Source of the DNA: Rhodothermales bacterium
Lineage (GTDB): Bacteria; Bacteroidota; Rhodothermia; Rhodothermales; DATKEJ01
DNA length: 39,949 nt
Reading direction: 5' to 3'
Assembly: GCA_035512315.1 (NCBI GenBank)
Contig: DATKEJ010000240.1
Span: 1-39,949, forward strand
Shown: positions 14,815-25,028 of the stretch, in pieces
Numbering within the stretch: position 1 is the stretch's first letter
Layout: each line of letters opens with the position of its first letter
Translations under genes and position numbers: made by a program
Notes under the pieces: generated by a model
What the model saw: the letters and a program-made list of their open reading frames with translations, nothing else
What the model was told of the DNA's origin: nothing
Databases searched by the model: none

Positions 14815-14823
14815 GTCTCCAAC

Positions 14824-14935
14824 GTGCATGGTGCAATGTGCAATGTGCAGCGTGCTGATTACCATGTACCATGTACCATGTACCAAGTACCAAGTACCAT
14901 GCACCATGCACTAGGTACGATGAACGATGAACTAA
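14824..14935. repeat. 16-unit heptanucleotide tandem array with drifting unit sequence
   Basis: The 7-nt register from 14824 reads GTGCATG GTGCAAT GTGCAAT GTGCAGC GTGCTGA TTACCAT GTACCAT GTACCAT GTACCAA GTACCAA GTACCAT GCACCAT GCACTAG GTACGAT GAACGAT GAACTAA. The array fills the whole gap between two convergent genes and overlaps the stop codon of the acyl-CoA synthetase gene. Confidence 0.9.
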
Positions 14936-20118: not shown

Positions 20119-22041
20119 GTGATCAACCGACTTTTGACCTTAATACCACTGATCTGCGTGCTCGCGACGGCGAGTGCAGGCGGTCAGTCGGAACTCGTCG
20201 AAACCACAGAACCCTGGGAGGATCTCGTCGACTCGGATGAGAATCTGCTAGTCATGTCGCGGATATACGAGCACCAGGGCGGCTCGCTCGAGGCCGCGGC
20301 CTATCGCGACTATTCCAGGTACGAGGCCCATCTCGACACGGCGATGCAGCTCATGATCGATCTGCTCGACGAGCCCGTCGCCGAAAGACCCCGCTTTCGC
20401 GAACTGTATCGAAGCGTAGTCACCGAATTCGAAGGCTATTACGGTGACGTCGACACCTTCACGACCGAGTTCGGCGGCATTTTCGCCGTACGCGACAGCC
20501 TTTTCGCATCCCTGGAGAAGAACGATCTCGTGGAGGACCTTCTGGTCACCCAGCTGCCCGAGATTTCGACCACGATTCCGATAGTCCACAACAGCCTCGT
20601 AGAGCGGAGCATCATTTATTTGCTGCGAAAGCCCGAGAAGACGGTGGATCTGTGGCGCTCACGGGCTGAAACGTACTTCCCGATGATCGAGGCGATCATG
20701 GAGCAGGAAGGTGCACCCGAGGAGCTCAAGTATCTTGCCCTGATTGAGAGCGGTCTCGAGCCTCGCGCCCGCAGCTGGGCCCGCGCGGCAGGGATGTGGC
20801 AGTTCATTTCAGCCACCGGTCGGTCGTACGGTCTCGACGTCAATGGATGGGTCGACGAGCGCCTGGATCCTGAGAAAGCGACCCGCGCGGCAGCAAGACA
20901 TTTGAAGGACCTGTACGAGCTCTTCGACCACGACTGGCACCTGGCGCTTGCGGGATACAACTGCAGTCCGGGTCGTGTCAAAAGGGCCATTCGTCGCGTC
21001 GAGCGTGCGACGGGAACGAAAGCGACGTTCTGGGACATTTACCGATACCTCCCTCGCGAGACAAGGGCCTACGTGCCGATGTTCATGGCCGCAGCCATCG
21101 TGATGTCGCATGAGGACGCTTTCAACTTGAAGGACGTCGAGCCTGGCCAGCGCTATGAGTTCGATCGGGTTGCAGTGCATCACGTGCTGCCACTGGCTGA
21201 CGTCGCGCTTATGAGCGGTGTCGACGTGGAGGCCATCAAGTTCCTGAATCCGGAAATTCGGACCGAATACGTGCCGCCGTCAGTCAAGCCGTACATGCTC
21301 AGGCTGCCGTTCAGGGCGGGGAATCGCTTCATCGAAAGGTACGACGCGTGGTTGGCCTCGGATGGGTCGAAAGGACTTGACCTGATGCACACGGTCGCTT
21401 CCGGAGAGACGCTTGCGCGAATCGCCCGCCACCACGGTGTCTCGGTCGCAGAGATTCGTTCGGCGAATGGGTTCAGCGGCAATGCGATCGAAGTCGGCCA
21501 GAAGCTCCAGATCCCAGTCTCATCGTACACGAGCAAGAGCTCGTTGGAAATGTTCGCGAATGGAACCGGGAGCGTGAGATACCGGCAGCCGTCCATCGAT
21601 CCCGTGGCCGTCATGTCGCTTGACGGTTCGGAGGTTGGACCGGGTAACAACATCAGGACGGTTGCCGTGCGAAGCCAGGCGCGCGCGCGCGAGATTAACG
21701 GAACGTCTTCCACGTCCGCTTCTTCCTCGTCGACGAGCGGTAATCGAATCAGATATCGCGTCAAGTCAGGAGACACACTCTCCGGCATTGCTTCCAAGTA
21801 CAGGACGTCCGTCGCTAAGCTGAGGGGCTGGAATAATCTGCGGACAAACCGCATCCGATCGGGTCAGATGCTCACGATTTACTCGGGCAGCGCCCCGACC
21901 GTCTCGCACAAGGTTCGACGCGGTGAGACGCTCTCGTCCCTCGCGCGCCGGTATGGCACCAGTATAAGTCGCATCAAGAGCTGGAACGGCTTGCGTTCAG
22001 ACCGGATCCAGGTTGGACAGGTGCTTACCGTGAGCCGGTAA
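20119..22041 (+). CDS. mltD: membrane-bound lytic murein transglycosylase D-like protein (SLT domain + 3 LysM domains)
   Basis: GTG start preceded by AAAGGAGG. Signal peptide MINRLLTLIPLICVLATASA. SLT catalytic region LKYLALIESGLEPRARSWARAAGMWQF. Three C-terminal LysM repeats: HTVASGETLARIA..., YRVKSGDTLSGIA..., HKVRRGETLSSLA.... Confidence 0.88.
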   Translation: MINRLLTLIPLICVLATASAGGQSELVETTEPWEDLVDSDENLLVMSRIYEHQGGSLEAAAYRDYSRYEAHLDTAMQLMIDLLDEPVAERPRFRELYRSVVTEFEGYYGDVDTFTTEFGGIFAVRDSLFASLEKNDLVEDLLVTQLPEISTTIPIVHNSLVERSIIYLLRKPEKTVDLWRSRAETYFPMIEAIMEQEGAPEELKYLALIESGLEPRARSWARAAGMWQFISATGRSYGLDVNGWVDERLDPEKATRAAARHLKDLYELFDHDWHLALAGYNCSPGRVKRAIRRVERATGTKATFWDIYRYLPRETRAYVPMFMAAAIVMSHEDAFNLKDVEPGQRYEFDRVAVHHVLPLADVALMSGVDVEAIKFLNPEIRTEYVPPSVKPYMLRLPFRAGNRFIERYDAWLASDGSKGLDLMHTVASGETLARIARHHGVSVAEIRSANGFSGNAIEVGQKLQIPVSSYTSKSSLEMFANGTGSVRYRQPSIDPVAVMSLDGSEVGPGNNIRTVAVRSQARAREINGTSSTSASSSSTSGNRIRYRVKSGDTLSGIASKYRTSVAKLRGWNNLRTNRIRSGQMLTIYSGSAPTVSHKVRRGETLSSLARRYGTSISRIKSWNGLRSDRIQVGQVLTVSR

Positions 22042-22053
22042 AGGGGTCTCGAA

Positions 22054-22088
22054 AAACGCTAAACGCCAAACGAGAAACGCTAAACGCC
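22054..22088. repeat. heptanucleotide tandem array (AAACGCT AAACGCC AAACGAG AAACGCT AAACGCC)
   Basis: Five units in perfect 7-nt register, starting 13 nt after the mltD stop. The first 20 nt are identical to 29398-29417. Confidence 0.9.
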
Positions 22089-22250
22089 CTCACTTGGCCT
22101 TAGCCGTGATCCTGCCGCTAACGGCGGGCGAGCACGTCCGCGCAAATGGTACGGGAGTAACCTCCCCCGGCTTCCGCTCCGCACTACTCTTCCCGCTTAC
22201 ATTTGAGACCCCCTCCCGAGGGGACCAGGCCCAGCAAACTGACGGGCCTT

Positions 22251-22299
22251 GGAACCTCGAACCCCGAACCCCGAACCCCGAACCCGTAACCCGCCGTAA
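22251..22299. repeat. heptanucleotide tandem array (GGAACCT, CGAACCC x4, GTAACCC, GCCGTAA)
   Basis: Four perfect CGAACCC units (22258-22285) are flanked by degenerate units. GGAACCTCGAAC (22251-22262) is identical to 29438-29449. Confidence 0.88.
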
Positions 22300-22436
22300 C
22301 GAATTCGCCTTGAACGAGGCGTCTAAAACCGTACGGTTGTGCCGGTTATTTCGTATTTTCCGGACCGCTCTAAGCACGTGGCGTTTGAGAGCACATCCGA
22401 TGGGCGCGGGAAGCTAGACTCACTTCGTTTGACTGC

Positions 22437-25028
22437 ATGGCAGAAGACCAGCAGAATTCTATTATCCTGATCGACATCGAGGACGAAATGCGGTCCTCGT
22501 ACATCGATTATTCGATGTCGGTCATCGTCAGTAGGGCGCTTCCTGACGTTCGCGACGGACTCAAGCCGGTTCAGCGCCGGATCCTGTACGGGATGAGCGA
22601 GCTGGACCTCGGCCCGACGCGTCCCTACAAGAAGAGCGCGAGGATCGTTGGTGAGGTCCTCGGCAAGTACCATCCCCACGGTGATTCAGCCGTGTACGAC
22701 GGGATGGTTCGCATGGCTCAGGATTTTTCGGTCCGCTATCCCCTGGTCGGAGGGCAGGGCAATTTCGGGTCGGTCGACGGAGACTCTGCGGCGGCCATGC
22801 GATACACCGAAGCGCGCCTGACGCGCATTTCGCAGGAGCTGCTCCAGGACCTCGAGAAGAACACGGTTGATTTCGTTCCGAATTTCGATGAGTCGCTAAA
22901 CGAGCCGAGCGTTCTTCCGTCGGCCGCTCCGAACCTCCTGATGAACGGAGCCAGCGGGATCGCCGTCGGGATGGCGACGAATATTCCTCCGCACAACCTC
23001 GGCGAGCTCGTCGACGGGATCGTGGCGTACATCGACGATCCGACGATCGAGACCGAGGCGATCATGGGATATATCCCGGCGCCTGATTTCCCGACAGGCG
23101 GCATCATTTACGGCTACGCCGGGGTGAAGGATGCTTATGAGACGGGACGCGGGCGCATCGTGCTCCGGGCCCGGATCCACGAGGAGGAGCTCGCCGGCGG
23201 GCGACAGGCGCTCGTCGTGACCGAGATTCCGTACCAGGTCAACAAGGCCACGACCATCGAAAAGATCGCTTCGCTGGTTCGAGACAAGCGCATCGAAGGA
23301 ATCTCGGATTTGCGTGACGAAAGCGATCGACGGGGCATGCGCATCGTGATCGAGTTGAAGCGCGACGCCGTTCCGCTCGTCATCCAAAACCAGCTGTACA
23401 AGTACACGCAGTTTCAGCAGACGTTTGGCGTGAACATGGTGGCGCTCGTCGATGGTCGACCGCGGACCCTGAAGCTCATTGAAGCGATCGGGCATTATGT
23501 AGACCATCGGCACGAGGTCATCGTCCGTCGCACCGAGTTCGAGCTCAAGAAGGCGGAAGAGCGCGCGCACATACTCGAAGGCCTCCGAATTGCACTCGAT
23601 CATCTTGACGCGATCATCTCGATCATCCGCTATTCGGCGAATCCGGATGAGGCGCGCGAGAACCTGATGGTCGGCGTTCTCCCCGAGGCGCTCACCACAG
23701 AAATGCGAGAGCGGTTTGGCCTCCCGACCACTGCCGAATCCCTCTTCTCTCTTTCCGAAGTGCAAGCTCGTGCCATTCTCGATCTCCGACTCCAACGGCT
23801 GACGGCCCTGGAAAGGCAGAAGATCGAGGAGGAGCACACGGAGGTCCTGATCCAGATTGAGACCCTGAAGGGCATCCTCGCCGACCGCGGCGTGCGGATG
23901 CAGATCATCAAGGACGAGCTGCTCGAGATCAAGAAACGATACGACGACGAGCGTCGGACCGAAATCGATTACACGGGAGGCGACATCCTCGCCGTGGAGG
24001 ATCTCATCGAGGATGAACAGGTCGTCGTGACCATCACGCACCAGGGTCTCGTCAAGCGTACGTCGGTTGTGAGCTATCGCCAGCAGGGTCGCGGCGGGCG
24101 CGGATTGAAAGCGACAGGCACGCGCGAGGAGGACTTCGTCGAACAGCTCTTCGTCTCATCCAACCACGACTATCTGCTTTTCTTTACCGATCACGGCCAG
24201 TGCTACTGGCTACGTGTCTTCGCAATTCCGGAAGGAGAGAGAACGGGCAAAGGCCGCTCGCTGCGGAATCTGATCCAGATCGATCAGGAAGACTGCGTTC
24301 GGGCCGTACTGGCGGTGAAGAAGGGCGACTTCATCGATCCGGATTTCGGCGAATCTCATTTTGTCCTGATGGCGACAAAGCAGGGGATGGTCAAGAAGAC
24401 TCCGCTGGCCGCATTCTCCCGTCCCCGCGCGGACGGCATCATTGCCATCTCGGTGAACGAGGGGGACGAGCTGCTCGAAGCCCACTTGACCGACGGCAAT
24501 GCGAACGTCGTCATGGCGTCGTCAGGCGGTCGAGCAATTCGCTTCCGGGAGCAGGATGCCCGCCCAATGGGTCGCAATACGATGGGCGTTCGGGGCATGC
24601 GCATCAGACCCCACGAGTCGATCGTGGGGCTGGTCGCCATAAACGGCGAAGATGCCGACGTGCTCGCCGTTTCATCCAACGGCTATGGAAAGCGATCGCT
24701 GATCAGCGAGTACCCGATCCACCGGCGTGGGGGCAAAGGAGTGCTCACCCTTAGAGCGACCGACCGCACCGGGCCGCTTGTCGCCGTGAGAGCCGTGCAG
24801 CAAGGCGCTGATCTGATGATCATAACGGTGGCCGGAATCATGATCCGCATGAACGTTAGCACCATCTCGACCCTGCGACGAAACACGCAGGGTGTACGGC
24901 TGATCAACCTCGGTGAAGATGACGAAATCGCCGACGTCGCAAGTCTGATGATTGACGAAGACGAGGTGTCCGACGAAGAGGATATGGCGACAGATCTCCC
25001 GGTGGACGGCCAGGACGTCGAGGAATAG
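22437..25028 (+). CDS. gyrA: DNA gyrase subunit A
   Basis: 863-aa ORF: [35 protein letters not shown]...[10 protein letters not shown] (active-site Tyr) ...[13 protein letters not shown] (QRDR). C-terminal beta-pinwheel repeats are followed by an acidic tail. Confidence 0.97.

Follow-up and report, generated by a model that had tools for sequence, protein, structure and literature searches.

The intergenic regions of a 39,949-nt contig of an uncultured Rhodothermales bacterium (DATKEJ010000240.1; the whole stretch is called the window in the following) contain tandem arrays of 7-nt units, and two blocks of such arrays resemble each other closely. One lies in the spacer between an mltD-like gene and gyrA, the other directly upstream of purQ. 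An earlier note, made from the DNA letters alone, had proposed that the two blocks are copies of one composite element or products of a sequence-specific process. Both blocks probably belong to a population of intergenic heptanucleotide arrays found throughout the lineage and are nothing out of the ordinary in it. Such arrays would change by slippage and by exchange between arrays and occupy unconstrained sites. The window was placed in the Rhodothermales (Rhodothermia) by its GyrA protein, with 88% identity to the closest genome locus (L001; loci of other genomes carry numbers with the prefix L).

Tandem Repeats Finder (TRF) and a lag-p self-match scan detected seven segments of period 7 in the window, compared with none or one for any other period between 4 and 12. 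Shuffled versions of the window (dinucleotide type) contained 0.05 period-7 segments on average. Ten loci of the immediate clade held 18 period-7 segments and 0 to 3 segments of any other period; together they amount to approximately 113 kb and are a limited sample rather than a whole genome. All arrays of the window are intergenic. They occur in 5 of approximately 19 spacers, occupy roughly 300 of the 3,500 non-coding bases, and are absent from approximately 36 kb of coding DNA. They abut stop or start codons, and their unit sequences are varied, with at least six unrelated unit families within the 40-kb window. The units drift without leaving the 7-nt frame, for example from AAACGCY to AACCTSG and AACGTCK or from GTACCAT via GCACCAT and GTACGAT to GAACGAT, and higher-order duplications of 21 nt were also seen. 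The word G-N-A-C (GAAC, GGAC, GTAC, or GCAC, in any rotation and on either strand) was present in 13 of 17 array units from the window, L001, L012, L101, L104, L105, L108, and L109, compared with an expectation of approximately 22%; this count was made post hoc, and some of the arrays depend on one another.

The mltD–gyrA spacer (22042–22436, 395 nt) comprises an array, 162 non-repeat nucleotides, a second array, and a promoter block. Its upstream neighbor (20119–22041, plus strand) encodes an MltD-like lytic transglycosylase with one SLT and three LysM domains (Pfam, 7e-25 and 5e-51, respectively). The stop-proximal array (AAACGCY)x5 (22054–22088, plus strand) lies in the 3′ region of mltD, with its first base 12 nt past the stop codon, and consists of the units AAACGCT, AAACGCC, AAACGAG, AAACGCT, and AAACGCC; it can also be read as 1.67 copies of a 21-mer. 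The promoter-proximal array (22251–22299, plus strand), TGG AACCTCG (AACCCCG)x3 AACCCGT AACCCGC, is located directly 5′ of the conserved gyrA promoter and leader block. Its units decay toward 22299, and TRF and the lag-7 scan call six copies at 22252–22293. The two arrays are out of phase with each other (offset of 3 modulo 7).

At the second locus, purQ (28702–29397, minus strand; Pfam GATase_5, 2e-47; the name PurQ was taken from homolog sources) has its start codon at 29395–29397, immediately beside an array that covers 29398–29460. Given on the plus strand, this region reads in one 7-nt frame as AAACGCT, AAACGCC, AAACGAT, AAACGAT, AAACGCC, AACCTGG, AACCTCG, AACGTCG, and AACGTCT, i.e., as (AAACGMY)x5 (AACCTSG)x2 (AACGTCK)x2. 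The purQ block is therefore a single in-phase array of nine units with drifting sequence, situated between the promoter and the ATG. The earlier note had divided it into two arrays separated by 5 nt and had extended it to 29474. The supposed gap turned out to be the unit AACCTGG of the continuous array, and positions 29460–29474 are non-repeat sequence belonging to the start of the conserved promoter block.

The likeness of the two loci itself was reproduced, including the AAACGCY and CGAACCC arrays, the 162-bp interval, the coordinates, the identities of 20/20 and 12/12, and the recurrence of the unit types with order and strand preserved. The 20-mer AAACGCTAAACGCCAAACGA is present exactly at 22054 and 29398, with 0 occurrences expected from 100 shuffles, and the five-unit A-type arrays of the two loci are identical at 33 of 35 positions. 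The 12-mer GGAACCTCGAAC is found without mismatch at 22251 and 29438; the G-type word common to both loci is actually 13 nt long (TGGAACCTCGAAC, 13/13), and the units that follow match at 21 of 27 positions. Within the window, the gyrA and purQ arrays are more alike than either is to the orthologous array of L001. This similarity is well beyond chance for random sequence and harder to calibrate in a genome full of related heptamer arrays. The 20-mer followed by the 12-mer was not found in any of 109 other loci, and when these loci were searched for the 12-mer and for A-type units followed by G-type units, one chance match in coding sequence was the only result.

Relatives were retrieved via homologs of the MltD-like gene (92 to 78% identity). 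In these uncultured Rhodothermia (78 to 93% protein identity), arrays are located at the same three positions, i.e., after the mltD stop codon, upstream of gyrA, and in the purQ leader, with other units and other copy numbers. After the mltD stop codon, L099 (92% MltD identity) carries AAACGCY units identical to the window over 33 nt before its contig ends. L101 (84%) has GTCCGYG x3.5 and L104 (78%) GTCCGAG x4.5, L106 and L107 contain two units (TCCGTGG x2), L001 contains one, and L100 none. The stop-proximal AAACGCY array was seen in the window and L099 only. At the gyrA-proximal position, CGAACCC x6 of the window is replaced by GGACYAC x4.6 in L001 and by GGGCTAC/GGACCAC in L106 and L107. 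L104 has no array there, L101 has GGAACGTCGAAC followed by the contig end, and L100 retains a degenerate remnant; the left junction of this remnant, GGGCCTGGAATTTCGAAC, is similar to GGGCCTTGGAACCTCGAAC of the window. A G-type array or a degenerate remnant is thus present at this position in L001, L106/L107, L101, and L100. In the purQ leader, L001 carries (AATCGCT)x5 (GGACCYC)x10, L106/L107 AATCGCT x2 before the contig end, L109 (TTGGACC)x4, and L108 GCAGGGT/GCAACNT. In L105, which is the closest relative at this locus (93% PurQ identity) and has almost identical flanks, the array is replaced by (GTGCAAT/GTGCATG)x6, approximately 60 nt of other sequence, and (CACCATG)x3; the right-hand junction follows ...AC in both the window and L105.

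Smaller changes were visible between L001 and L106, whose mltD–gyrA spacers are 94% identical. They differ by one clean 7-nt indel in the repeat register and by six substitutions in the 28-nt array, compared with three in the approximately 140-nt promoter block. No period-7 excess was detected in L102 and L103 (65% MltD identity) or in the other Rhodothermales loci L002, L004, and L009, and period-7 arrays reappear in a distant Bacteroidota genome (L012). The short-read contigs of several relatives end in or beside arrays (L099 at 4243–4288, L101 at 2333–2417, L106/L107 at 1–86). The arrays act as assembly breakpoints and hide the comparisons that would be most wanted.

Upstream of purQ, a sequence TTTG-N19-TATCTTT (29462–29491, minus strand) was predicted as a promoter of the Bacteroidetes −33/−7 type. 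It fits the published −33/−7 consensus of Bacteroides and Flavobacterium, and in the window it is the sole match to TTTG-N17–21-TAnnTTT in 80 kb, both strands counted. In purQ sense, GCAGAACGATTTGAG-N-GATTGGTTCG-N-TATCTTT is kept in the window, L105, L001, L108, and L109 (alignment A3). The promoter assignments in this work are based on consensus and conservation rather than on mapped transcript ends. The arrays of the purQ locus start 2 to 6 nt past TATCTTT and stop at the ATG, so that the array would make up essentially the whole 5′ leader on the minus strand. The conserved promoter implies, as judged from sequence, a purQ leader of heptamer repeats only, which would lack a Shine–Dalgarno sequence. 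The folding z-scores of the leaders were +0.65 for the window, −0.12 for L001, +0.93 for L109, and −5.34 for L105, which can form an 18-bp stem. Because the array of L105 is wholly replaced between nearly identical flanks and folds in a wildly different way, purQ appears to tolerate any leader array.

At gyrA (22437–25028, plus strand; identified by its tblastn matches to GyrA, among them that of Rhodothermales), the window was compared with L100, L001, L104, and L106 in alignments A1 and A4, which revealed a conserved promoter and 5′ leader block at 22303–22436 (plus strand). It contains, in this order, GAATTCGCCTTGAAC ... ATTTCGTATTTT ... GTTTGAGAGCACATC ... GAAGCTAGA ... TTGACTGCATGG. The alignable sequence begins abruptly at GAATTCGCCTTGAAC (22303), exactly where the array ends, and continues to the ATG. 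This block of 135 nt is highly conserved across relatives with 78 to 82% MltD identity, and everything further upstream is unalignable. Since it exceeds the minimal need of a promoter, it may include a regulatory leader. A scan of 21900–22600 for sigma-70 promoters and intrinsic terminators returned no terminators and two weak promoter-like matches at 22429–22465, which overlap the gyrA start. The position of the conserved block downstream of both arrays also speaks against the idea that the 162-bp interval between them is part of the gyrA leader.

This interval (22089–22250, no strand assigned) is fast-evolving intergenic DNA, and the available sequence evidence is best read as that of an ordinary spacer rather than an insertion, a cargo, or a small RNA. 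The earlier note had considered all three roles. An Rfam scan of the window at the gathering threshold returned tRNA-Pro only, and an E-value scan of 21950–22500 gave noise with E-values of about 5. The folding z-scores were −0.24 on the plus strand and −0.58 on the minus strand, and folding of the whole spacer on both strands was also without signal. The sigma-70 and terminator scan showed no promoter- or terminator-like sites in the interval, and the small open reading frames (ORFs) of the spacer are all of low complexity, as had been stated before. Local alignments to the spacers of L100, L104, L001, L106, and L101 did not score above shuffles; the contig of L099 ends 45 nt past the mltD stop codon, so this comparison covers the relatives beyond the 92% distance. 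No second copy was found in the window or the 109 loci. No terminal inverted repeats or target-site duplications were present at either the gyrA or the purQ locus, and the only inverted repeat of the spacer (11 nt, 91% match, 22043–22053 and 22202–22212) is at chance level.

Non-repeat DNA separates the array positions in every relative whose contig reaches that far (approximately 45 bp up to the contig end in L101, 105 in L001 and L106, 165 in L100, and 190 in L104), and no empty site was seen. Because relatives already possess a non-repeat spacer, the layout of array, spacer, array, and promoter predates the AAACGCY array of the window. The two array positions at gyrA are distributed differently among the relatives, and no presence or absence polymorphism of a whole unit was found. 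A composite element interrupted by a 162-bp insertion or cargo is difficult to reconcile with these different histories and with the lack of terminal inverted repeats, of a target duplication, and of a second copy of the interval in the window and the 109 loci. The earlier note had itself counted an unconserved interval, a pairing that does not recur, and shared words confined to this DNA against its proposal. The interval is indeed unconserved and the pairing is absent from the 109 other loci, but the 20-mer does occur elsewhere.

An exact scan of metagenomes with the 20-mer yielded 18 unrelated contigs representing approximately 11 distinct loci with a GC content of 43 to 67%. The copies are located inside NAACNNN heptamer arrays, some of them very long (L082, L083), and several of the contigs also carry arrays of the GGAACNN, GGGAATY, or AATGACG type. 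These contigs contain 30 period-7 segments, compared with 0 to 11 for other periods. As a common instance of a widespread unit family, the 20-mer marks no single element. In contigs of an unrelated organism from metagenome Ga0315294 and related samples (L086/L088, L092/L097, L094/L096, L089/L093), the 20-mer is part of a mosaic of heptamer arrays and short hairpin modules. This mosaic lies upstream of a sequence of approximately 250 nt that is common to at least four loci with different upstream flanks and may represent a multicopy region or a dispersed element. A relation to the plant-type telomere repeat, raised by CCCTAAA units in the unrelated contig L082, was dismissed as irrelevant to the window. 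In the gyrB–gyrA spacer of L012 (9856–9971; 58% GyrA identity), (AGGGCAT)x4 is followed by (GAACYCM)x12, which ends 5 nt before the gyrA ATG.

Three further array regions were found in the window. The convergent spacer at 14815–14931 (117 nt), between a gene for a hemerythrin-domain protein and a gene for an AMP-binding enzyme, is filled nearly end to end with heptamer arrays, (CAWNGTG)x5 followed by (GTACCAW/GCACCAT)x7 drifting to GTACGAT and GAACGAT (14820–14932, plus strand). Its halves are partly reverse-complementary, with a perfect 12-nt inverted repeat (14824–14835 and 14900–14911) and a folding z-score of −2.49, and the spacer may form a bidirectional hairpin according to these predictions. 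It also shares sequence with a different locus of a relative. The exact 20-mer GGTGCAATGTGCAATGTGCA at 14830–14849 recurs in the purQ block of L105, and approximately 40 nt around it are more than 90% identical. The array (GTCCGGC)x3.3 (9735–9757, plus strand) is located in a divergent spacer adjoining tRNA-Pro. In L001, (TAGTCAY)x5 (266–302) directly follows the 3′ end of tRNA-Pro, where the window has no array; the (GTCCGGC)x3.3 array of the window is on the other side of the tRNA gene. Finally, (GTCCKAG)x3 (37079–37099, plus strand) begins 6 nt past the ftsH stop codon, and the same unit follows the mltD stop codon in L104. Rho-utilization sites, considered for C-rich and G-poor arrays after stop codons, were ruled out on inspection, since the post-stop GTCCGAG arrays are G-rich.

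To explain both blocks as members of a common array population, the following course of events is proposed. Arrays would arise and change by strand slippage in steps of 7 nt, sometimes 14 or 21 nt, and their units would drift and then become locally homogeneous again. From time to time, similar arrays at different loci would exchange or copy stretches of sequence through ectopic conversion or template switching, which is the proposed reason for the near-identity of the gyrA-spacer and purQ-leader arrays. The arrays would be close to neutral and would persist in unconstrained sequence only, namely behind stop codons, ahead of promoters, and in 5′ leaders, the last of which would accept them since a host of the Bacteroidota type needs no Shine–Dalgarno sequence. 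The arrays of the window follow stop codons, precede the conserved gyrA block, or come after the purQ −7 box; no coding sequence contains one, and neither does the stretch between the −33 and −7 elements, which is not the arrangement of phase-variable contingency simple sequence repeats (SSRs). Repeated 7-bp target duplications were rejected as a generator, since no element known to us to duplicate 7 bp is located nearby.

Several observations weigh against this explanation. Slippage alone accounts neither for the preference for 7 nt nor for the presence of G-N-A-C in 13 of the 17 units, with the reservation that the count was made post hoc on arrays of which some are interdependent. The same unit variants appear in the same order at different loci (33/35 and 13/13 between gyrA and purQ, 20/20 between the 14.8-kb spacer and the purQ leader of L105). 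The persistence of positions over 20% protein divergence and the bipartite array at gyrA in L012 could mean selection. The census covers approximately 113 kb from ten clade loci rather than a full genome, and it is left unexplained that the same unit families turn up in unrelated bacteria.

Alternatively, array cassettes could move or be copied actively. A dedicated mechanism anchored in the sequence would carry bipartite blocks from one intergenic site to another, be it template switching or recombination on the G-N-A-C or AAC core or a non-autonomous element with heptamer-array arms, and the gyrA and purQ blocks would be two insertions of one element type. The identities of the two blocks, whose order and strand are the same at a distance of 7 kb, are consistent with such copying, and so are the enrichment of G-N-A-C and the wholesale replacement of the purQ leader in L105 with intact flanks and a right junction after ...AC. 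A second bipartite type, a GTGCAAT-type array followed by a CACCATG-type array, is found both at 14.8 kb in the window and in the purQ leader of L105. The proposal of the earlier note finds partial support here, since array cassettes do recur across loci and the predominance of period 7 over all other periods shows that a process specific to 7-nt periodicity operates. However, terminal inverted repeats and target-site duplications are lacking, the purQ block forms a single array in phase throughout rather than two joined elements, the two gyrA array positions differ in phylogenetic depth, and the pairing is missing from the 109 other loci. No transposase or recombinase was noticed beside the arrays among the annotated flanking genes, which were not screened systematically. 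Mobile cassettes are therefore regarded as an unlikely explanation, and a similarly small chance is given to the broader view that arrays are copied as multi-unit cassettes anchored on G-N-A-C or AAC, or are maintained by a factor reading DNA or RNA with a 7-nt period. If this broader view were true, close relatives would differ by leaders and gene ends that had been rewritten as a whole, and it would begin to answer why 7-nt repeats and families such as AAACGCY and GGAACNN recur in unrelated bacteria. It is also doubtful that the arrays are functional cis-elements, i.e., tandem 7-bp or 7-nt binding sites for a DNA- or RNA-binding protein that tunes flanking genes such as gyrA and purQ. The omega repressor of pSM19035, a ribbon-helix-helix protein, binds contiguous 7-bp heptads (WATCACW, direct or inverted) upstream of promoters and has its cognate gene nearby. 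It sets a precedent for a protein that reads a 7-bp period; a ribbon-helix-helix protein polymerizing on heptads in this way would be one candidate, and S1- or cold-shock-type proteins acting on leaders, as proposed for TAACTGA repeats, would be another. The persistent positions, the purQ leader that consists of an array up to the ATG, the L012 arrays ending 5 nt before the gyrA ATG, and the recurrent G-N-A-C core would fit such a function, and regulatory effects of heptamer repeats have been reported or proposed for Nostoc and Beggiatoaceae (bioRxiv 10.1101/2022.06.06.494920; PMC4679880). On the other hand, one 40-kb window holds at least six unrelated unit families, and this diversity argues against one omega-type recognition sequence, since omega reads one defined sequence; no candidate binding protein emerged, and no search aimed at one was made. 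At purQ, the unit, the copy number, the composition, and the RNA structure all change between close relatives, which is hard to square with sequence-specific recognition, and arrays are equally frequent after stop codons and between convergent genes.

Two narrower proposals concern the gyrA spacer. The complement of the CGAACCC array contains a canonical G-quadruplex (G4) motif, (G3+ N1–7)x4, at 22269–22292 on the minus strand (GGGTTACGGGTTCGGGGTTCGGGG). According to a regular-expression scan of both strands, it is the sole motif of this type in the window. Four tracts of at least three G with loops of 1 to 7 nt are provided by the CGAACCC array only and not by the AAACGCY or purQ arrays. Transcription of gyrA is classically regulated by supercoiling. 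A G4 or an i-motif approximately 10 to 35 bp 5′ of the conserved promoter block might be extruded when the DNA is negatively supercoiled and thereby act back on the transcription of gyrA, and G4 formation has been studied for the G-rich heptamer repeats of Xanthomonas and Nostoc (PMC4692102). The motif is, however, unconserved in the arrays of the relatives (GGACYAC/GGGCTAC in L001 and L106, remnants or no array in L100 and L104) and is probably a by-product of the current unit sequence, so that a supercoiling sensor of this kind is very improbable. Nothing in the present data requires a special role of the arrays in gyrA regulation. The lowest probability is assigned to the 162-bp interval being a small RNA gene or a cargo inserted into a formerly contiguous bipartite array. 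The contiguity of the same array types at purQ had suggested it, and a lone −7-like match (TAnnTTTG) is located at 22198–22205 on the plus strand. This motif occurs nine times in 80 kb, about as often as expected by chance, and has no −33 partner here; in addition, the interval has no Rfam match, its folding z-scores are close to zero, terminator-like sites are missing from 21900–22600, its similarity to the spacers of relatives does not exceed that of shuffles, and all these relatives have a non-repeat spacer at the same place. The interpretation as ordinary arrays flanking an ordinary spacer is preferred.

The heptamer arrays described here belong to a known but mechanistically unexplained class of bacterial repeats. 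Heptamers are the most over-represented class of long simple sequence repeats (LSSRs) in many bacteria, polymerase slippage has been proposed as their cause, and arrays between the same genes of related species vary extensively in length and sequence (PMC4679880, PMC4692102). As relayed by these two papers, heptanucleotide LSSRs were described by Mrazek, Guo & Shah (2007), who proposed slippage, and PMC4692102 cites the short tandemly repeated repetitive (STRR) heptamers of Calothrix and Nostoc (Mazel et al., 1990). LSSRs and STRRs share with the present arrays head-to-tail 7-nt units in 3 to 10 or more copies, an excess of the period, dispersed intergenic locations, several families per genome, and a patchy phylogeny. 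At least three copies, the period-7 excess, intergenic dispersal, and variation at the same site between related genomes were all found here. The present arrays differ by their host, an uncultured member of the Rhodothermia with approximately 59% GC, and by their units (AAACGCY, GRACNNC, GTGCAAT, YACCATG, and GTCCGNG). Neither a G-N-A-C bias nor multi-unit words common to different loci are described for LSSR or STRR systems in the secondary accounts cited above.

The GGGAATC repeats of Xanthomonas and the GGGGAYT repeats of Nostoc PCC 7120 (Rehm et al., 2015, PMC4692102) likewise occupy the spacers of the same gene pairs in related species, where their length and sequence vary extensively; some form inverted pairs between convergent genes and some form G4 structures, comparable to the complement of the CGAACCC array. 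In contrast to those genomes, which are dominated by one G-rich family, many families are found here and most of them are not prone to G4 formation. The TAACTGA arrays that MacGregor (2015, PMC4679880) described in cyanobacteria, five Bacteroidetes, and marine Beggiatoaceae lie a few nucleotides before start codons, in organisms or regions without canonical ribosome-binding sites, similar to the purQ array. The same study mentions "larger assemblages of heptamer repeats" in Bacteroidetes spacers and contigs that end in TAACTGA repeats (PMC4679880). The TAACTGA unit is conserved across loci and taxa, which prompted a binding-protein model, whereas here the unit varies at one gene even between close relatives. 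Miniature inverted-repeat transposable elements and repetitive extragenic palindromes are also short, intergenic, and present in multiple copies, and the GTGCAAT/CACCATG blocks form long hairpins (z-scores of −5.3 in L105 and −2.5 at 14.8 kb). Unlike such elements, the present arrays have no fixed termini, target-site duplications, or conserved internal sequence, and they are internally ordered as 7-nt tandems. A literature search found no description of heptamer repeats in Rhodothermus, Salinibacter, or the Rhodothermia, and a 2025 survey of short tandem repeats (PMC12699852) does not mention heptamers.

Intergenic heptamer arrays have been known since 1990, and neither the cause of their 7-nt period nor a general function has been established so far. 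The loci compared here form a clean comparative series, with three fixed positions at gyrA and purQ, conserved promoters as anchors, and graded relatives, and in them one can follow indels of a single unit, drifting units, the replacement of a whole array, and multi-unit words common to different loci. In practical terms, the arrays break short-read assemblies, so that several public contigs end inside them, and they create spurious low-complexity ORFs. For the biology of these bacteria, the purQ locus is informative. A gene of an essential pathway tolerates a 5′ leader that would consist entirely of repeats and that differs completely in sequence and structure among close relatives, which informs on translation initiation without a Shine–Dalgarno sequence.

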